Shown: positions 13,279 through 23,698 of the stretch, in pieces
How positions within the stretch are numbered: the stretch's first letter is position 1
Layout of the letters: the number at the start of each line of letters is the position of its first letter
The notes under the pieces: model-generated
What the model saw: the letters and a program-made list of their open reading frames with translations, nothing else
Database searches by the model: none
Told to the model about the DNA's origin: nothing
Source: Clostridia bacterium
GTDB taxonomy: Bacteria; Bacillota; Clostridia; JAAYHZ01
Direction: 5' to 3'
Assembly: GCA_050950825.1 (NCBI GenBank)
Contig: JBMNIH010000002.1
Coordinates: 448,001 to 512,000 of the forward strand
Length of the DNA stretch: 64,000 nt
Translations under genes and position numbers: made by a program

Positions 13279-14067
13279 TCAATCATCCAACCGAAGGGTA
13301 AAGTTCAATCGGTTGATACGGAGGGCTTTTCCGGTTTTATCGTCGATTTCAATATGAGCCCCGTTGAAGATCATTTCTCCTTTTTGGGGAGAAAACTTCA
13401 CGGGCATGCCGGTAACGAACCGGCTGATGGAAGAATCTCGGTCCGTTCCTAATATGCCCTCTCCGGGACCGGTCATACCCACATCGGTAATAAAGGCGGT
13501 ACCGAAAGGAAGAATTCTCTCATCGGCGGTTTGCACATGGGTGTGGGTTCCCACCACCGCGCTGACTCTGCCGTCAAAATGCCATGCAAATGCACACTTT
13601 TCGGAAGTGGCTTCTCCGTGAAAATCCACAAGAACCGACTTTGTAATTTCCTTGATCTTCGGCAGCTCTTCTTCGCATGTTTCGAAGGGACAGTTGCAGG
13701 GCTGCATATATACGCGTCCGGAAAGATTGATAACCGCTAAGGGGCCCGCTTTACCGTCTAGAATAAACCGACCTCTTCCGGGACTTTGCTTGCTGTAGTT
13801 AGCGGGACGTGCCATGTAAGGATCGGAATCTATGGAATACAGGATTTCATCTCTTGCCCATACATGATTGCCCAAAGTAATCCCGTCTACGCCCATATCG
13901 TACAGCTCGGATGCAATTCTTCCGTTGATCCCCTTCCCCGCCGCCGCGTTTTCGCCGTTTGCAATACAATAATCCCACCGGATCTCGTTTTTTAATTTGG
14001 ATAAGCCTTTTTGAACCGTTAATACCCCTTGCTTTGCAAATATATCTCCGATAAATAATATTTTCAT
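13279..14067 (-). CDS. ymdB: YmdB-like metallophosphoesterase (TIGR00282)
   Basis: GDI, NGENAA.G.G, TLGNH, DFHGEATSEK, GTHTHVQTAD. Confidence 0.93.
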   Translation of the reverse strand: MKILFIGDIFAKQGVLTVQKGLSKLKNEIRWDYCIANGENAAAGKGINGRIASELYDMGVDGITLGNHVWARDEILYSIDSDPYMARPANYSKQSPGRGRFILDGKAGPLAVINLSGRVYMQPCNCPFETCEEELPKIKEITKSVLVDFHGEATSEKCAFAWHFDGRVSAVVGTHTHVQTADERILPFGTAFITDVGMTGPGEGILGTDRDSSISRFVTGMPVKFSPQKGEMIFNGAHIEIDDKTGKALRINRLNFTLRLDD

Positions 14068-14930
14068 TATTCAATTCCTTTCTAACTTACGCTTATTATA
14101 ACACAGGGTGCCGGGAATGAAAACGACCACAATCGTCACATATATAGAAGATAATGTTTGTTTTTATAAAAATTCTTCACCCCGCATCATATAAACGTTC
14201 TTCAACCTTGATTGAAAAAGTAAAGTCCACTTTGCAAGGTTAAATTCCATCCATCCTAAAAAATTATTGCATAAGGTGGGATAAAATTATTCTAACAAGG
14301 AAGAATTGTTACTATGGAAGGATTTTTTCTGCAAAAAGCAAGTGAATGCTTCATTTATTACCTGTTTTTTTGCATAGCAAACAAACCGTGTTGATTTCTT
14401 CACTTTTTTGCAAAGGTAAAATCCACTACGGTTAAAAGGTAATAATTGGCAGAACGATGCCTTTCGGATAATTATTAATACTTTAATAAATCGGGATTCA
14501 AACAAATATTATTCGGTTCAATGAGTTTGGATCCCAATTTTTTTATTACTTCTTCACCAAACATAAATTTAAACACTTCATGAGGAGTTCTATCATTTAA
14601 AGATAATCCGGAGTAAGAATTTATGTGGTTCATTACAAGATTAATATCTTCCTGCACGAGATTATCGAAGCTTGTTCCTTTCGGTAAGATCTTCCTCAGT
14701 TCCCCGTGATTTTTTTCTTGTGATGCCCTTTGATAAGCTGAATACGAATCGCAATAAAAGACCTTAGTTCTAACTTCTCCGGTTACTCGGTAGTATTCAA
14801 TCGCTTTCGGGTTCGTAAATTCACTGCCCTTGTCAGCCAAAAGTATGGGAAACAGTTTTCTATTTAGCCCCCTAATATAATTGGAGAAACCATACGAATT
14901 TAGTAAAATGAATATAGGGGGTTAATCCAA

Positions 14931-15236
14931 ATGAAACACTATGATGATAAGTTCAAGGAACAAGTAATAAAAGAATGTCAAGAAGTGGGTAATATTTCCC
15001 TTGTTGCTAGACGCCATGATATATCCAAAACTACTATATATGGTTGGATAAAAGCTTATAAGAAGAGAGGTTCAGTCACTCCACTTCCTAAAAATAAAGA
15101 CAATAGAGTAAAAGAATTAGAACATAGGCTTAATGTTGTAAGCACAGAAAATGATAGATTAAAAAAGCTTGTTGCAGAAAAAGAGTTAGAGCTGCTAATA
15201 CTTAGAGAATTAAGGGATAGAGTAAACCCCAAGTAG
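14931..15236 (+). CDS. IS3-family transposase OrfA (HTH plus leucine zipper)
   Basis: KHYDDKFKEQVI...VARRHDISKTTIYGW, ENDRLKKLVAE. Confidence 0.9.
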   Translation: MKHYDDKFKEQVIKECQEVGNISLVARRHDISKTTIYGWIKAYKKRGSVTPLPKNKDNRVKELEHRLNVVSTENDRLKKLVAEKELELLILRELRDRVNPK

Positions 15237-16195
15237 CCGACAAGGTTGCAATTGCATTAAGGTGGATAAATAAAGGTTATGATATATCTTTAGTACTTGG
15301 CTTTGTCGGCATTGCTGCATCCACCTATTATGAATACATAAAAAGGCAATCAAAATCTAATAGAAATCATAATATTGCAGCATCTAATAAAGATAATGGA
15401 AGGCCTAGACCTGGTTATTCATATACAAAGACCGGTAGAAAAGTATCTGATGAACAAATAAAGGAGTGGTTATGCAATTTAATATCAGGAGATGGTTTTC
15501 CCTATGGTTACCGTAAACTAACAATATGTCTTAGAGAAGATTATGATCTAATTATCAATCATAAAAAAGTATATAGGCTGTGTAAAGAATTAGATATACT
15601 AAGACCTCAAAGAAAAATAAAGGAAAAGAGTTCTAAGCATTTAGCTAAGAAAGAAACAATATCAGCTCCCAATGAGCTTTGGGAAATGGATGTAAAATAC
15701 GGATATATAAGCGGAGAAGATAAATTCTTCTTTCAACTATCTCTAATAGATGTATTTGACAGAAGCATTATAGATTATCATATAGGCTTATCCTGTAAAG
15801 CTTCTGATGCTTGCAATGTATTGAGAAATAGTATAAGAAAGCGCAATATATATGGTGGTTTAAGGACACCTAAGATAAGGACAGACAATGGCCCTCAATT
15901 TGTATCTAAAGAATTTGAAGAATTCTGCAACAGCAATAATATAGTTCATCAAAGGATACCAGTAAAAACTCCTAATATGAATGCACACATAGAATCATTC
16001 CATTCAATATTGGAAGATGAATGTTACAGTCGCAATGAATGGAACAATTTTAAGGAGGCATACGAAACAATAACTGAATATATGAATTATTATAATAATC
16101 GCAGAAGGCATGGAAGCATAAAATATATGGCTCCAAATAAATTCTATGAAGCAATTATGAGAAAGAATGTAAAAGCTAAAGCATTTGCTGCATAA
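15230..16195 (+). CDS. IS3-family transposase OrfB (DDE), -1 frame relative to OrfA
   Basis: Frame open from 15230 with YGYRKL, WEMDVKY, TDNGPQF, NAHIESFH; first ATG only at 15686. Confidence 0.88.
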   Translation, partial: QVADKVAIALRWINKGYDISLVLGFVGIAASTYYEYIKRQSKSNRNHNIAASNKDNGRPRPGYSYTKTGRKVSDEQIKEWLCNLISGDGFPYGYRKLTICLREDYDLIINHKKVYRLCKELDILRPQRKIKEKSSKHLAKKETISAPNELWEMDVKYGYISGEDKFFFQLSLIDVFDRSIIDYHIGLSCKASDACNVLRNSIRKRNIYGGLRTPKIRTDNGPQFVSKEFEEFCNSNNIVHQRIPVKTPNMNAHIESFHSILEDECYSRNEWNNFKEAYETITEYMNYYNNRRRHGSIKYMAPNKFYEAIMRKNVKAKAFAA

Positions 16196-17747
16196 TCTCC
16201 ATAATTAGGGGGTCAAACCGTTTTCGAAACGTGTCAAGACCCAAAAGCTCTGTCAGTTTGTCGAAAACATCGATTACCGATTGCGAATCGTTCGAGTCTC
16301 GTAAAAATGCAAGCATAAATTCGGTTTTAACAAAATGCAACGTCATCAGCACTTTACCGCCTTTTGTACCAAGCACCGAATCCATTTCCACGACGAAAGG
16401 AGCATTAACATCTGCCATCACTTTTTTTGTAATCATCATACGTGCGTCCTATTCGGCATTCGCGATCCACTTTATGAGTTACGCCCGGTTTTTTGCGAGA
16501 TCGATATCTTACTTTTCTGGGCATATCAATATTACGAGCCGTGAAGAGGCCGTAGTCAACGTAATTGTATAACGTCCTTTCGCTGTACATAATTTTATCG
16601 GCATTGTTTACGCAAATATGATGAATGGACTGGCCTTTTTTCAGAAGAGGTGATATCACGGTATCCAATTGTTGCAACGATTTTTCATCGATTGCCACAC
16701 CGGAACGTGATTCCGAACGTGTATATTCATATTCTTTGTCTGCAACTTTAGCGTCGTATATCATTTTTTGCAATGAGCACTTGCGTTTTGTCGAGCATCC
16801 GTTACATACGTAAGGCGGTTTTTCGAGAGCATCACACTTCTGTTCTACGAAAGCATCACAGAAGTCATTGCACAGTCTGCATATGCTACAGATCCCTTTT
16901 TCGCAAACTCCGCTTTTTTTACATAGCGAACGTTTATGACAACCGATCCTGTACTTACATGCATTGTACGATTGGCCGAAAGCACCTGTCTTTCGTTCTA
17001 CCCGATGTCGACGAACTTCTTTGGATATTGTCGTGCAATCTTTACCGAGTATTTTACCGATTTCCTTAAAAGATTTTCCCTCCTTCAATAAGTTTTCGAT
17101 ATCTTTCCTGTCTGATAACGTCAAATGAGTTGACATCATTATGGTTCTCCTTTCAAAATCATTTTGAAAGACATCGTTCTTTTTTAATGATTGCACTGAT
17201 ATCGGTAAGTAATACATGTCTTGTTAGTTTTTAGTTTTAGATCATGACAAAAGTCCATCCGGTTAAAAAGACAAGCAATGGCCTTTTGCGGCATAAACGG
17301 CCTCCTTCCCGGCAAAGCCGGGTCCCTTCCATTTATTCCACAGTGCCATGCTTTTCTTTTTTCGCCATGCTTTTGAACATATACCGAGGGATGAAGGGGA
17401 GATGCAAGCGACCAATTTCTCAACATCCCTCGTCTTTTATATCGTAGCATGGCGAACACCGTATTACTTTTATATTTGTTTAGGTAATGATAGTCTCAGG
17501 AATCAGCTAAAAATGCATGCTTTCTTTACTAGTAATTTTTTGTATTTGCGTTTGCATTAGTAAAGTCCACAATATTTTTATTAATATTTTTGCAAAAGTA
17601 AAATCAACTGCAGCTTTCGAAGGGTGGACTTTACTTTTTCAAATGAGCAGAACGTTCTTCAACGACGAATTTGTAAAGGAAAACCTTCAGTATTTTTCGA
17701 TATATGGTATATTAATATGTAAAAAACCGTTTGCTTGGAGGGGAATG

Positions 17748-18803
17748 ATGAAAAGCATGATGACGTCAAGAGAAAGAGTGTTATCGGTTTTTAAAGGAAA
17801 GCTTCCGGACCGAGTTCCGTGGATGGAAGGAATTACGGAGAATAAAATCGCAACCGCCGTTTGCGGAGAACCGATTAATGTTAAATGGGAGGTAAGTCCG
17901 GCAGGGTTTCCCGTTCAATCCGGAAGAGAGCTTGCACAAGAACAGATCAAAGTCAATAAGGTGTTCGGCAAGGACAATATTCAGTTTTCAGCCTTTGCCC
18001 CCATATTTGCTCGAAGAATGACAAAAACCGATGACGGAAGCAATGTTTTGATAGGCGACGGCATGATTCGTACTTTTGAAGACTTTGAGAAAATATTCCG
18101 GCTTCCCTCACCGAAGGACCAAGAATTCGTCGAAAAAGCTCGAGAATTCATCAAGTACAGCGAAAATTATTGTACCGTAGCGTGTATCCGATTAGGTATC
18201 GGAGCGACCCTTTTGTCCATGGGCATCGAAGGGTTTTCTTATGCCATGGCGGACGACCCGGACTTAATCCGTGCCGTCCACGACGCTTACGCTTCATGGA
18301 CGGAAGAAGTCTTAGACGTTATCCATGATTGCGGTTTTGACATTGTATGGGCTTTTGACGACATCGCGTTTAATAACGGTCCGATTTTTTCACCCGCTTT
18401 CTACGAAGAAGAAATTCTCCCCCGAGAAAAAAGAATTATCGATAAAATCAACGTTCCGGTCATTACCCACAGCGACGGCAATATGACGCCGTTATTGGAT
18501 ATATGGTTGAAGCTAGGTCAAGACGGAATTCATCCTATTCAACCGGATGTGATGGACATTGAATACGTGAAAGAAAAATACGGCCGGCAGGTGGTTTTGG
18601 TAGGCAATATATTCATGGATGATTTGGTTCACAAAAATCCCGAGGATATTAAAACACAAGTAAAAGACAGAATCGAACGAATCGGAAAAGACGGCCGCTA
18701 TATCATATCCTCAAGCAACAGCCTAACGGATAACATGAAACCCGAAAACGTAAAAGCAATGATCGAGGCCATCGAAGAATACGGATATTACGAAACGAAA
18801 TAA
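17748..18803 (+). CDS. Uroporphyrinogen decarboxylase / MtaA-CmuA superfamily protein
   Basis: MTSRERV...PDRVP, DDIAF...P.FSP, HSDGN, HPIQP, GYIISSSNSL-like motifs; RBS GGAGGGG. Confidence 0.8.
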   Translation: MKSMMTSRERVLSVFKGKLPDRVPWMEGITENKIATAVCGEPINVKWEVSPAGFPVQSGRELAQEQIKVNKVFGKDNIQFSAFAPIFARRMTKTDDGSNVLIGDGMIRTFEDFEKIFRLPSPKDQEFVEKAREFIKYSENYCTVACIRLGIGATLLSMGIEGFSYAMADDPDLIRAVHDAYASWTEEVLDVIHDCGFDIVWAFDDIAFNNGPIFSPAFYEEEILPREKRIIDKINVPVITHSDGNMTPLLDIWLKLGQDGIHPIQPDVMDIEYVKEKYGRQVVLVGNIFMDDLVHKNPEDIKTQVKDRIERIGKDGRYIISSSNSLTDNMKPENVKAMIEAIEEYGYYETK

Positions 18804-20185
18804 GAAGGGGGCTGTTGCACTAAAAAGAAATAGTGCACAGCCTCTTTTTATTTAATTGATAAAAAATAAATCCCGATGCCCAAGAAGCAAGGGATTTATA
18901 GTAAAATAACAATATGAAAACCTTAAAACTTAATAAGAAGTATACATTTAAACGAAGAAATTATCAACTAAAACTTCCAATAGAATTGGAATATAAAATT
19001 CCTGACGATGATCCGGTTCGCTTGTTGAGTCATTTTGTGGAGGAGATGGATTTAGAAGATTTGTATTCGACTTATTCTCGTATAAAGAGAAACCAAGCAA
19101 GCCCGCGTCAGATGCTTAAAATCTTAATTTACGCATACATGAATCATATTTATTCATCAAGAGACATAGAAAAAGCATGTCGTCGCGATGTAAATTTTAT
19201 GTACCTTTTAGAGGGTATGCCGGTACCTGATCATGCAACGTTTTCCAGGTTTCGAAGCTTGCATTTCACACCTTGTGCCAAAAGAATTTTGAGTGAAATG
19301 TCCGAATTTCTCTATGATATCGGAGAATTATCCGGCGACGCCATATTTATTGACGGCACGAAAATAGAGGCGTGTGCAAACAAATACACTTTTGTCTGGA
19401 AAAGAGCGGTCACAAAAAATCAAGAGAAGTTGCTTGCAAAATTGGCGGATTTCTTCGCGGAATGCGAGGAAAAGTACGGAATCAAAATAGTATACAATAA
19501 TCAAGTCGAAATGAAACACGTTAAAAAGTTACGCAAGAGACTGTATGCCATAAAGAAGGAAGAAAACATCGAGTTCGTACATGGAAAAGGGAAGAGAAAA
19601 ACACCTTTCCAACGATCCATTGAGACTTTGGAGAATTATTTGGATAAGCTGAAGGAATATACGAAAAACATACATGTATGCGGAGACCGCAACAGTTTTT
19701 CAAAAACGGATCACGATGCGACGTTTATGAGAATGAAAGAGGACGCCATGGGCAACGGTCAGCTGAAAGCGGCATATAACATTCAACATGGCGTTGACTC
19801 CGAGTACATAACATGGGTAACGGTGAATCAATGCACAACGGATGCACCGACTCTAATACCTTTCTTGAATGAAATGAGATCCCATTTAAAATTCAAATAC
19901 AAAAAAGTTGTCGCGGACGCAGGATACGAAAGCGAAGAAAACTATATTTACTTGGATAAAAACGGCCAATCGGCGTATATTAAACCGTTAAATTACGAAC
20001 AATCCAAAACCAAGAAATATAAAAATGACATTGGTCTTATGGAAAATATGGAATACCATGCAGAAGGAGATTATTACGTCTGTCATAACAAGAGAAAACT
20101 TGTCGTTAGCGATATAATAAAGAAAAGAAGCAAAAACGGATTTTTGAGCGAGAAAACGGTTTATACATGCGAAGATTGCAGTGAT

Positions 20186-21892
20186 GCTCATTTGAAAAAG
20201 TAAATTCTACCCCCCGAGATACCTAATGTGGAATTTACTTTTTCAAATTCAGAAGTGGAATTTAGTTTTTCAAAAAGGTAAGATGTTTATGGTGGTGCCT
20301 CTTTTGGAGGTACATATGAACAAGAACAAACATTTGACCTTGGAGGATAGGAATACTATTGAACTAAGATTAAAGGAAAGAGAATCCTTCAAAGCTATTG
20401 GACGTGAGCTTGGCAAGGATCCAACTACTATCGCTAAAGAAGTTAAAAACCACCTTCAGTTTAAAAAGACCGGTTGCTATGGAAAAGCCTTTAATGACTG
20501 CCGCATTAGAAAAAACTGTACTGTACGGCATCTTTGTGGCAGCAAAAGGTGCAGACGTTACTGCTGCTTCTGTAACACCCATTTTTGTTCGACACTTTGC
20601 CCTGATTACCGGCAGGAAACATGTCAAAGACTTTCAAAGTCTCCTTATGTCTGCAATGGCTGCGAAGTCAAAACTTCCTGTACGCTGGAAAAAAGAACTT
20701 ACTCTGCACTGCATGCGCAAAGAGAATACGAAGCAGTCCGTTCAGAGTCACGTCAGGGCGTACAACTAACCGAAGAAGATGCGCTGAGACTGGATTCTCT
20801 TATCAGCCCTCTCATTATGAAAGGCCAGTCTCTCCACCACATATGTGTTAGTCATGCAGATGAAATCATGCTCAATGAACGCACTCTCTACAACTATGTG
20901 GACAAAGGCTTCTTTGCAGCCAGAAATATTGATATGCCTCGTGTTGTACGAATGGGAAAACGCAAGAGGAAGAATGAACAGTTCAAGGTGGACAAGAAAT
21001 GCCGGAACGGTCGCGCTTATCAGGATTTCCTTAAATTTATGGAGGAACATCCCGGGCTTCCTGTCGTTGAAATGGATACGGTCGAAGGAAGAAAAGGCGG
21101 CAAAGTGCTGTTGACGCTGCATTTTACCATACCTCAGCTAATGCTCGCATTTATCCGGGATGCCAATACTTCACAGTCCGTTATTGACGTGTTCGATAGG
21201 CTTTACAAAGGACTTAATCCGGATGTATTTCGCAGCTTGTTTCAAGTGCTTCTCGGGGATAATGGTAGTGAATTCTCCAATCCATCTGCCATTGAAATGG
21301 ATTCTCAGGGAAAACAAAGGACCCGAATTTTTTATTGTGACCCTCAGGCGTCATATCAGAAAGGTGCAGCTGAAAACAACCATACGCTGATCAGACGTAT
21401 AATCCCCAAGGGAACATCACTTGACAATTTTACGCAGGAGGACATAACACTTATGATGAATCACATTAATTCCTACAAAAGACTCAATCTCGGTGATAAA
21501 AGCCCTTATGAAGTCTTCTCTTCCCTTTACGGTGAAGAAATCCTAAAAAAGATGGACGTGGAACCTATCGCGTCAGATATGGTCATCCTTCGTCCATCCC
21601 TTCTTAAAAAATAAAACTTTAATAAAGAGGCACCACCTGCCGTAACTTCATAAATACACAATAAACAGGGGTGGAATTTACTCTTGCAAAAAGTGAGCTA
21701 ACATTTCACCCTTTATTTAGTGCACCCTAAAAACGGTTGGTTTTGCGCTCTTTACTCATATTTTATACTATTCATAAGTAAAAGTCACTGAAAATAAACC
21801 TTATTTTATTGCTGGATTAATATTGTTTTCTCCCGGTTTCAGAATCTGTGGAATTTACTTACGCAAAGTGGAATTTAACTTTTCAATTCACC
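20186..21892 (+). mobile_element. IS30-family element (copy E2, apparently intact, 1707 bp)
   Basis: 13-bp direct repeat AGATTGCAGTGAT at 20173-20185 and 21893-21905; ends GCTCATTTGAAAAAGTAAATTC / GTGGAATTTAACTTTTCAATTCACC. Confidence 0.92.
20316..21614 (+). CDS. IS30-family transposase with Cys-rich insertion
   Basis: KHLTLEDR HTH, DDE motifs EMDTVEG / DNGSEF / KGAAENNH; RBS GGAGG at 20306-20310. Confidence 0.92.
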   Translation: MNKNKHLTLEDRNTIELRLKERESFKAIGRELGKDPTTIAKEVKNHLQFKKTGCYGKAFNDCRIRKNCTVRHLCGSKRCRRYCCFCNTHFCSTLCPDYRQETCQRLSKSPYVCNGCEVKTSCTLEKRTYSALHAQREYEAVRSESRQGVQLTEEDALRLDSLISPLIMKGQSLHHICVSHADEIMLNERTLYNYVDKGFFAARNIDMPRVVRMGKRKRKNEQFKVDKKCRNGRAYQDFLKFMEEHPGLPVVEMDTVEGRKGGKVLLTLHFTIPQLMLAFIRDANTSQSVIDVFDRLYKGLNPDVFRSLFQVLLGDNGSEFSNPSAIEMDSQGKQRTRIFYCDPQASYQKGAAENNHTLIRRIIPKGTSLDNFTQEDITLMMNHINSYKRLNLGDKSPYEVFSSLYGEEILKKMDVEPIASDMVILRPSLLKK

Positions 21893-22447
21893 AGATTGCA
21901 GTGATTGCTCCTTCAAAAGTAAATGTATAAAAGGAAATAGCAAGATTCCGTTGACTGAAAGGGTAAAAAGACTTCACGTGGCGAAGGAATTTATCCGACA
22001 ACGAGAAAAAGCCATGGAAAGAATACGGAGCGAAGAAGGCTGCATGCTTAGAATAAACAGAAGCATACAGGCGGAAGGATCTTTCGGAACAATAAAGCAG
22101 GACATGGGATTTCGGAGATTTTTGTGCAGAGGTAAGGCGAATGTACTTGCCGAGAGCATACTACTGGCTATGGCTTTTAACGTAAATAAGCTTCACAGTA
22201 AAATTCAAGCCGGACGAACCGGTACACATCTTTTTCAATTTGAAAATAGTGCTTAAGTGAAAACAAATTAAAGAAAAAGCCGATTATTACAAAAGGTGTA
22301 TTAAGTGCACCCTTTTTTAGTAATCGGCTTCTTTGTTGATTAAAATTAATTAAAATTCTTTAAATTCAAGGTAAAATATTGAAAAAGAGGCAGTGCATCA
22401 GAAGTTTAAAAAACCTCTAATGCAACAGCTCCTTTTATTTATCGCCT

Positions 22448-23698
22448 TTATTTTCGATTCGCCCGGGCAACCTTTTCGATGATGGAAGCGGCCAATTCGC
22501 AGTGTTCTTTTTCATATTTTTCGCTAAAGCTGGACCATCGGATAAAGGTTTTCAAAAAGCGATGAGCGTTAGGGCAAGTATTTTCATCGTATACATAATC
22601 AAAGGACGCCGGAGGCTTGCTGAAAGGATAAATCTTTTTCTCCGCTTTGCGTTGCAGAAATTTTAAGGATTCGGGCATTAAATAGTACTTGCCTAATCCG
22701 GCATCGCCGATACCTTCATCGGCTAATCGCTTCACAAATTCCTCGGGTGTACAGAGAAACTTTTCCGGGTCTATTCGAAAGCCGAACATCCAACAGGAAT
22801 ACAGGTCGACATAATCCGGAATTTCCAAAGGGAGTATCCCGTCAATATTACGAATCAAACTTGTCAAATACCTTGCCATTCGATCGATTTTTTCAACGGC
22901 CGGCTTTATGATTTCCAGCTGTGCCAGTGTCATTGCCGCCGTACAGGAAGGCATACGGTAAGCCAGGCCTTGGTCCTGATGGACTCTTCCGAAGCCCGGT
23001 ACCGTTTTGGCGTCTCGGCTGTGGCCCATATATCGTGCTCGGTCCGCAATTTCATCGTCGTTCGTAATGATGCAGCCCCCTGTATCGGAGCCTAAAGTCT
23101 TTTCGGCATCAAAGGAAAAAGCCGCCGCCTTGCCGAAGGTTCCTGCCAATCTTCCTTTATACTTTCCGAATACGGCTTGGCATACGTCCTCGTAAACAAT
23201 AAGCCGGTGTTTTTCCGCAAGCCGAAGAATAGGGTCCATATCGCAGATAATACCCGTTTTATGAACAACAAGAACGGCACGGGTTCTTTCGGTGATGCAT
23301 TTTTCAATGGTTTCTGCGGAGACGTTCACGCTTCCTTCTTCCGTATCGGCAAACACGGGAATGTAATTCTCGTACAAAAGACCCAAAACGGTACCGTAAT
23401 CGGTAACGGGGCTTACGATGATTTCATCGCCCGGTTCAAAACCAAAGGTTGCGGCTAGAACATGAAGTGCCGGCGTACAACCGGGCGTAGCGATGCAGTG
23501 CTTGACACCGTATTCCTTTGCAAATGTTTTTTCAAACCTTGTCGTCATATCCGAAGCCAAACCCGAGTCCACCACTTCCTGCAAATACTTCATTGCATTG
23601 GGTCCTATAATCCGCGGAAATAAGCCGGGCAGTTTTGTATTGAAATCCTTAAATGCATCCGCTCCGAATTTTGCATTTTCCGGTTTTCCCATATCCAT
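22448..23698 (-). CDS. DegT/DnrJ/EryC1/StrS family PLP aminotransferase
   Basis: GDEIIVS, PVFAD, EDVCQA, FSFDAEK (PLP Lys), GG.I.TND; RBS GGAGG before MDMGK. Confidence 0.88.
   Translation of the reverse strand: MDMGKPENAKFGADAFKDFNTKLPGLFPRIIGPNAMKYLQEVVDSGLASDMTTRFEKTFAKEYGVKHCIATPGCTPALHVLAATFGFEPGDEIIVSPVTDYGTVLGLLYENYIPVFADTEEGSVNVSAETIEKCITERTRAVLVVHKTGIICDMDPILRLAEKHRLIVYEDVCQAVFGKYKGRLAGTFGKAAAFSFDAEKTLGSDTGGCIITNDDEIADRARYMGHSRDAKTVPGFGRVHQDQGLAYRMPSCTAAMTLAQLEIIKPAVEKIDRMARYLTSLIRNIDGILPLEIPDYVDLYSCWMFGFRIDPEKFLCTPEEFVKRLADEGIGDAGLGKYYLMPESLKFLQRKAEKKIYPFSKPPASFDYVYDENTCPNAHRFLKTFIRWSSFSEKYEKEHCELAASIIEKVARANRK

Follow-up and report, generated by a model that had tools for sequence, protein, structure and literature searches.

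Two divergent insertion sequences (IS) of the IS30 family, here called E2 and E1, lie within a stretch of 64,000 nucleotides from a Clostridia bacterium (assembly GCA_050950825.1, contig JBMNIH010000002.1, positions 448,001 to 512,000 of the forward strand), referred to below as the window, and in each of them a short segment, or arm, of the transposase 5' untranslated region (5'UTR) is complementary to a second arm placed just after the stop codon. Comparison with relatives confirms that the observation is real and far more general than the two elements in which it was made: the predicted long-range helix is a conserved trait of one IS30-family subgroup, and in the alignments the arm sequences turn over between lineages with complementarity kept within each element. 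The helix probably ties either the translation or the stability of the transposase message to that message being intact. For the E2 lineage, the best reading of the predicted folds is that the pairing would activate translation by freeing the Shine-Dalgarno (SD) sequence, to which we assign a probability of about 0.5; the switch, its direction and the position of the transcription start are what we infer. The arms and the local hairpins that they overlap are as follows.

20186..21892, plus strand: E2, an insertion sequence of the IS30 family, intact and 1707 bp long, nested in an IS1182-family element.
20291..20304, plus strand: 5' arm of E2, GGTGGTGCCTCTTT, ending 1 nt before the SD.
21624..21637, plus strand: 3' arm of E2, AAAGAGGCACCACC, 9 nt past the stop codon (21612-21614).
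20295..20313, plus strand: local hairpin of E2, GUGCCUC/GAGGUAC (GTGCCTC/GAGGTAC as DNA), covering the SD GGAGG at 20306-20310.
14206..17640, minus strand: E1, a divergent element of the same IS30 subgroup, with limits taken from the copies C2:529999-533432 and C8:120059-123736.
17180-17166, minus strand: 5' arm of E1, AGAACGATGTCTTTC, the start codon being at 17139.
14465-14451, minus strand: 3' arm of E1, GAAAGGCATCGTTCT, 9 nt past the stop codon (14477-14475).
17171-17149, minus strand: local hairpin of E1, TCTTTCAAAA/TTTTGAAAGG (UCUUUCAAAA/UUUUGAAAGG), a 9-bp stem of -8.0 kcal/mol.

A repeat search returned the E2 arms as a 14-nt match with 14/14 Watson-Crick pairs (100% complementary, 1319 nt apart), in agreement with the exact complementarity claimed in the preliminary description of this DNA, and the 15 positions of the E1 arms hold the claimed 14 Watson-Crick pairs together with one T·G, which is a G-U pair in the sense RNA. 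By an arithmetic estimate, the chance of a perfect inverted match of 14 nt within 1.7 kb is about 0.005. The same description had placed a local hairpin over the SD of both elements, and both hairpins are indeed predicted by RNAfold, with a value of -11.4 kcal/mol for the E2 leader alone, but that of E1 covers its SD only in part, since it overlaps only the start of GAAAGGAG (17154-17147). It had also noted that both 3' arms run into CTGCC, which is true of this pair but is not retained in the closest relatives of E2. The arms are not the terminal inverted repeats of E2 because they are internal, 105 and 255 bp away from its ends; their identification with the IS ends was ruled out, the ends at 20186 and 21892 having their own repeats and 13-bp duplications. 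A search of Rfam with positions 14000-22500, at E values up to 1, gave no relevant match, which is weak evidence because covariance models cannot span a 1.3-kb loop.

The relatives used for comparison came from 80 loci of the 561 confirmed, in species-representative genomes and at 44-77% identity, complemented by copies from the bacterium's own genome; they amount to 70 distinct elements, which fall into 15 lineages defined as single-linkage clusters at 60% protein identity. Complementarity was scored by ungapped Watson-Crick pairing between a 5' window from -55 to -6 relative to the start codon and the 70 nt that follow the stop codon, with all mismatch types treated alike, a scheme that replaced RNA.duplexfold over wide windows, whose structures were loop-filled and uninformative. 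A score of at least 10 was reached by 37/70 true pairs and by 7/4152 cross-lineage pairings, and a score of at least 8 by 51 of the 70 distinct elements, compared with 262/4152 cross-lineage pairings (6.3%). When each lineage was reduced to one representative (n=15), the true pairs summed to 177.2 against 95.3±7.3 for permuted ones, with 0/100,000 permutations as high, and the true partner ranked best in 14/15 lineages. For the E2 lineage taken by itself, paired cells make up 88%, compared with 40-58% in slid controls, and three pairs have changed on both sides. Covariation in homologues had been set out beforehand as the test of the pairing, and the complementary arms do covary over the 15 lineages.

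Mismatches and folding were counted in 64 elements, after exclusion of L031, L039, L041, L045, L077 and L081 (score below 8); L029, L069 and L087 (start or stop outside the locus), L094 (split match) and loci with little flank were also dropped. Among these 64 elements the 5' arm takes the form of 60 distinct strings, and a conserved end-repeat motif stands 13-45 nt past the 3' arm in 45/64 relatives. Across the subgroup the helix measures 8-20 bp, and in the relatives the 5' arm ends 12-35 nt ahead of the ATG, so that neither the SD nor the start codon is in the helix, which abuts the SD in L086 and L089. The subgroup is further marked by 13-bp target duplications, several end repeats of the GTGGAATTTA type and, often, a transposase with a cysteine-rich insert. 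Fourteen canonical IS30 loci from other Firmicute genomes were also considered, 5 of which were too near the locus end, leaving 9 for examination: L102, L103, L104 and L108 have terminal repeats only, L109, L110, L122 and L124 have nothing above background near the open reading frame (ORF), and L120 probably belongs to the subgroup, with a start that is likely mis-called. This sample (n=9) is too small to claim that the arms are absent elsewhere in the family.

The mismatches that interrupt the helices point to pairing in the sense transposase RNA. A search blind to mismatch type counted single mismatches with three or more Watson-Crick pairs to either side and gave 18 sense-strand G·U, 2 A·C (equivalent to G·U in the antisense strand) and 10 others; 9 lineages contain G·U and 1 contains A·C (binomial p=0.0004, on sequences that are not fully independent). 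This bias, together with the rapid turnover of the arms beside conserved transposase sites, favours sense-RNA pairing over protein-binding sites, and the 18:2 ratio of G·U to A·C supports what the preliminary description had read from a single G-U pair and from covariation.

The position of the 3' arm tracks, in the relatives compared, the last stop codon of the coding block and not distance along the DNA. In elements with a transposase ORF only, 11 nt is the median gap between stop codon and 3' arm, with extremes of 4 and 49, and hence the 9-nt gap that had been described for E2 and E1 is correct for both but is not fixed in the subgroup. Nine elements of three lineages carry a further reading frame, ORF2, and there the 3' arm is found 7-14 nt past the ORF2 stop, 200-320 nt past that of the transposase. 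The idea of a ribosome footprint, by which a short gap would go with a longer helix, was rejected, as the two show no correlation (Spearman rho -0.13, p=0.39). ORF2 itself, a small conserved frame (63-102 aa), overlaps or follows the transposase stop (L017:1817-2005; L049:2808-3113; L035:2522-2773) and comes in two types unrelated to each other, marked by the motifs DEYG..PL.ADE and HEME..PMT..ER..LR.W...NPW respectively; no Pfam match to it was obtained. One of the ORF2 elements, E3 (L017, in the bacterium's own genome at C7:155900-158400), has two adjacent 5' segments, of 14 and 11 nt, each complementary to sequence downstream of ORF2 (about 2006-2040). Their 3' partners are in swapped order and the two helices cannot nest; the outcome would be either an arrangement like a pseudoknot or a choice between two pairings.

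That both arms are on one transcript is predicted from a candidate promoter, of which the following element is the part closest to the 5' arm.

20279..20284, plus strand: predicted -10 box, TAAGAT, 6 nt upstream of the E2 5' arm.

Relatives in the E2 lineage keep this box as TATGAT or TATAAT, and in 57/62 relatives the 5' arm is preceded, at a distance of 3-18 nt, by a -10-like box that often has the form TGnTATAAT. Transcription of E2 is predicted to start at about 20290-20292, and because the -10-like box sits just upstream, the 5' arm would, if the box is used, probably lie at or within about 11 nt of the 5' end of the mRNA. In the full predicted E2 mRNA (1362 nt), the 14-bp helix is kept in both the minimum free energy and the centroid folds, and the SD region is unpaired in the latter. 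A scan for consensus terminators gave no plus-strand site over threshold after the E2 ORF. Fragments of E2 were found in four metatranscriptome runs. One RNA-library run holds a 176-nt contig over the E2 3'UTR, 3' arm included (21559-21734), with a depth of 84 compared with 7-11 over the ORF, and a second run has a contig of equal length; this deep contig could be a stable RNA fragment or a sequence common to related elements.

We propose that the arms would pair in the sense mRNA, in a helix that begins at the 5' end of the message or close to it and reaches about 10 nt beyond the final stop codon, and that the 5' arm would double as an anti-SD sequence in at least five lineages, that of E2 among them. 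In the nascent leader alone, a hairpin would form and mask the ribosome-binding site; after transcription of the 3' arm, the stabler long-range helix would capture the 5' arm and free the ribosome-binding site, and translation would be licensed solely on messages with an intact 3' end. We suggest, more tentatively, that such an arrangement might serve as an integrity check, evolved repeatedly in a mobile-element family, in which a leader shut over the ribosome-binding site could be opened only by the segment past the last stop, ribosomes thereby loading on complete, undegraded messages. The RNAfold predictions for E2 are consistent with the freeing of the SD, whose probability of being unpaired is 0.03 in the leader alone, where it is paired to the 5' arm, and 0.71 with the 3' arm added, and clusters 1, 8, 9 and 11 are predicted to behave as the E2 lineage does. 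Over the 64 elements the mean of this probability goes from 0.38 to 0.62 on adding the 3' arm, with a rise in 38 of them. Pairing of the SD to the arm is predicted in 23/24 leaders of clusters 0, 1, 8, 9 and 11, where about 10 are expected, and the local hairpin has a few compensatory changes of its own, in a single pair for cluster 8 and in two pairs for cluster 9.

Several points weigh against the freeing of the SD as the general function of the helix. The folding tests substitute two-strand cofolding for the 1.3-kb loop; in 5/64 elements the prediction is that the 3' arm makes the SD less accessible; and in E1, whose hairpin covers part of the SD, the probability of being unpaired changes modestly, from 0.39 to 0.62. 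SD-to-arm pairing is predicted in 29/64 leaders, compared with 15.3 expected from shuffled arms, and is not family-wide, with only 2/22 leaders in the largest lineage (cluster 5). In pairing to the SD region, a lineage's own arm had no advantage over the arms of other lineages (Wilcoxon p=0.52); an anti-SD signal for the whole family was dropped on this comparison, and because this lineage-level test is not significant the switch is claimed for some lineages only. To these are added the phylogenetic non-independence of the mismatch counts, the consensus promoter scan, which gave no plus-strand promoter over threshold upstream of the E2 ORF (the TAAGAT box being weaker than its cut-off), and the nature of the metatranscriptome data, which are contigs and cannot reveal RNA starts, ends, strand or level. 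The unlocking of the ribosome-binding site by the 3'UTR, as originally proposed, is thus retained as a prediction for the E2 lineage and four others, but it is weak in E1 and finds no family-wide signal. An anti-SD switch in E2 and several other lineages is plausible from the modelled folds.

The main rival accepts the same RNA helix and gives it another job, namely protection of the message from RNases as in the hbs mRNA of Bacillus subtilis, any effect on the SD being secondary or lineage-specific. The paired 5' end would shield the message from 5'-end-dependent RNases and the block after the stop codon would keep 3' exonucleases at bay, giving an IS that lacks a terminator its own message ends, independent of the insertion site. 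We consider this rather unlikely as the principal function, although it agrees with the helix being the only family-wide feature, which the SD hairpin is not, with the location of the 5' arm at or near the predicted 5' end, and with the scan having found no terminator-like plus-strand site after the E2 ORF. The hbs precedent is a close one, in that an interaction of 14 nt, established in vivo by compensatory mutations, limits cleavage of the leader and slows 3' decay (PMC5737220). However, two local hairpins, one at each end, would protect equally well with no long-range pairing, and an anti-SD sequence is found inside the 5' arm in five lineages, oftener than shuffled arms predict.

Repression of translation by the helix, and roles in the DNA, are less likely. 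Transposases are usually kept at low levels. In the repressive reading, the stable helix beside the SD would hinder 30S binding once the message is complete and confine translation to the period of synthesis, which would favour action in cis, and in some lineages the helix would release the start region to pair with the SD. The helix stops 1 nt short of the SD in E2 and abuts it in two relatives, the 3' arm lowers predicted accessibility in the five elements mentioned above, and icaR offers a precedent for repression by a 3'UTR (PMC3868564; PMC7821165). Yet the SD and start codon are never in the helix, whose 5' arm ends well before the ATG; the 3' arm raises predicted SD accessibility far more often than it lowers it (38/64), and the SD region is open in the centroid fold of the full-length E2 mRNA, all of which makes repression improbable. 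More improbable still is that the arms act in the DNA, either as a second inverted pair of protein sites or as relic terminal repeats that covary through one shared protein. Inverted sites for one protein would also covary between elements, and the terminal inverted repeats of canonical IS30 closely flank the ORF, but the sense G·U bias is unexpected for double-stranded sites, the arms are highly diverse whereas the evident transposase sites are conserved, and arm length and spacing vary. The arms are neither at the termini nor conserved in sequence, as transposase sites or terminal repeats would be, and the resemblance, by eye, of the subgroup's own end repeat to canonical IS30 terminal repeats argues against relic ends. 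As for chance, or a neutral by-product of no function, some of the helices are short and a score of 8 is also seen in cross-lineage pairings, but the permutation result and the persistence of complementarity across lineages of less than 60% identity, despite complete turnover of the arms, leave it hardly credible.

Freeing of the SD by the 3'UTR, our preferred reading for the E2 lineage, can be compared with several known systems. In hok of plasmid R1 (fbi/tac), pairing of the 5' and 3' ends keeps the full-length mRNA inert until 3' processing; as predicted for the E2 lineage, end pairing competes there with a local fold that controls translation, but the predicted logic in the E2 lineage is the reverse, the pairing opening the ribosome-binding site, and the product is a transposase and not a toxin. 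In IS200, sequestration of the ribosome-binding site in the leader reportedly controls translation of the transposase. The same type of sequestration has been described for the leader of ISPpu9, of the IS110 family (PMC8450116), and an antisense RNA is recorded for IS30 (Arini et al. 1997, cited in PMC8450116). IS200 and ISPpu9 resemble what is predicted for E2 in having a leader hairpin that hides the ribosome-binding site of the transposase and is modulated by another RNA segment, but there, as in IS30 antisense control, the modulator is either a distinct molecule (antisense or small RNA) or upstream read-through sequence, whereas in E2 it would be the element's own 3'UTR.

Closest in form is the B. 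subtilis hbs mRNA, for which a 14-nt interaction linking the 5'UTR with the 3'UTR has in vivo proof by compensatory mutations (Braun, Durand & Condon 2017, PMC5737220). About 14 nt of the 5'UTR pair with the 3'UTR of the same Firmicute mRNA in hbs and are predicted to do so in E2, a pairing that links, or would link, what becomes of the message to both of its ends. The hbs gene is a single housekeeping gene whose 3' partner lies just ahead of a terminator and whose 3'UTR is unconserved among the orthologues of close relatives (PMC7821165); the predicted IS30-subgroup helix, by contrast, covaries across a mobile-element family, lies about 10 nt past the stop codon and overlaps an anti-SD sequence in some lineages. 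In Staphylococcus aureus icaR, a 3'UTR segment likewise pairs with the 5'UTR of its own mRNA and affects translation, in that case by pairing with the SD and repressing (Ruiz de los Mozos et al. 2013, PMC3868564; PMC7821165). The 3' arm in the elements studied here does not pair directly with the SD; the helix stops upstream of it and is predicted to free it in the E2 lineage. Known 5'-3' UTR interactions in bacteria are few. The accessible text of a review of bacterial 3'UTRs gives RNAIII/hld, icaR and hbs as cases of 5'-3' pairing, each confined to a single gene, describes 3'UTRs as poorly conserved and does not contain the word transposase (PMC7821165). A literature search, with subscription journals and supplements outside its reach, found no 5'-3' UTR interaction in a transposase gene or IS.

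The remaining features of E2 separate its ends from its arms.

20316..21614, plus strand: transposase ORF of E2, 432 aa, with an HTH_38 domain, a cysteine-rich insert and an IS30-type DDE core.
20190..20277, plus strand: left-end repeats of the GTGGAATTTA-nn-TTTTCAA type, comprising an inverted copy at the terminus (20190-20210) and direct copies from 20228 and 20255.
21668..21892, plus strand: right-end repeats, with copies from 21671, 21848 and 21868, up to the right terminus.
20173..20185 (left) and 21893-21905 (right): 13-bp target duplication AGATTGCAGTGAT, flanking E2.

The limits of E2 are fixed by a second identical copy on the same contig (C2:335225-336933) and by uninterrupted copies of the IS1182 target, and the empty site is present in RNA-library contigs, where 20172 is joined to 21893. 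Its transposase scores 114.5 bits with the NCBIfam IS30 model NF033563 (cut-off 80), and a repeat of the TTGAAAA-GTAAATTC type is common to its left and right termini, as befits IS30 terminal inverted repeats. The target duplication of typical IS30 elements is 2-3 bp, with longer ones in some members. Both copies of E2 have 13 bp, with a different sequence at the second copy, and this length marks an atypical IS30 subgroup. The end repeats are presumed to be transposase-binding sites, distinct from the arms. The left terminal repeat and the first subterminal one form a 21-nt inverted repeat (20190-20248, 95% complementary, 17-nt loop) followed by a T-run, a hairpin that could terminate, or insulate E2 against, transcripts entering from outside. 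The innermost of the left-end repeats and the -35 position of the promoter predicted for the transposase overlap (20255-20284), which suggests that the transposase, by binding at this site, could repress its own promoter. The host of E2 is an IS1182-family transposase gene (18914-20203 and 21893 to about 22443; NF033551, 284.6 bits), of which at least five other copies, with 98-99% identity, are present in the genome, the result being nested insertion sequences.

E1 is broken by an IS3-family insertion of 1361 bp (14860-16220), and its fragments match NF033563 below the cut-off. Its transposase frame is further broken at the A-run GATTACAAAAAAAGTG (about 16405-16440, minus strand; break near 16425), and the C8 copy of the E1 family also changes frame, near residue 232; the shared break could be a common mutation or programmed slippage. 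Other insertion sequences interrupt all three E1-family copies in the genome (3/3). Between E1 and the IS1182 element, at 17517-18803, lies a homologue of MtaA/CmuA-like methyltransferases (uroporphyrinogen decarboxylase fold), which scores under the curated cut-offs (73 vs 244 bits).

What sets these elements apart is a predicted 5'-3' UTR interaction that covariation has preserved over no fewer than 15 divergent lineages within a single family of mobile elements; for a long-range helix in mRNA, these lineages amount to compensatory mutants supplied by nature. If the switch is true, it would add a new level to the control of transposases and offer a simple means of keeping translation confined to intact messages, and if it acts as an integrity check it would be a protein-free bacterial counterpart of closed-loop translation licensing. 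If the helix instead protects the message, it would show how a mobile element can set the ends of its message irrespective of the insertion site. Being compact and portable, the arm pair could also be put to use as a module in expression engineering.

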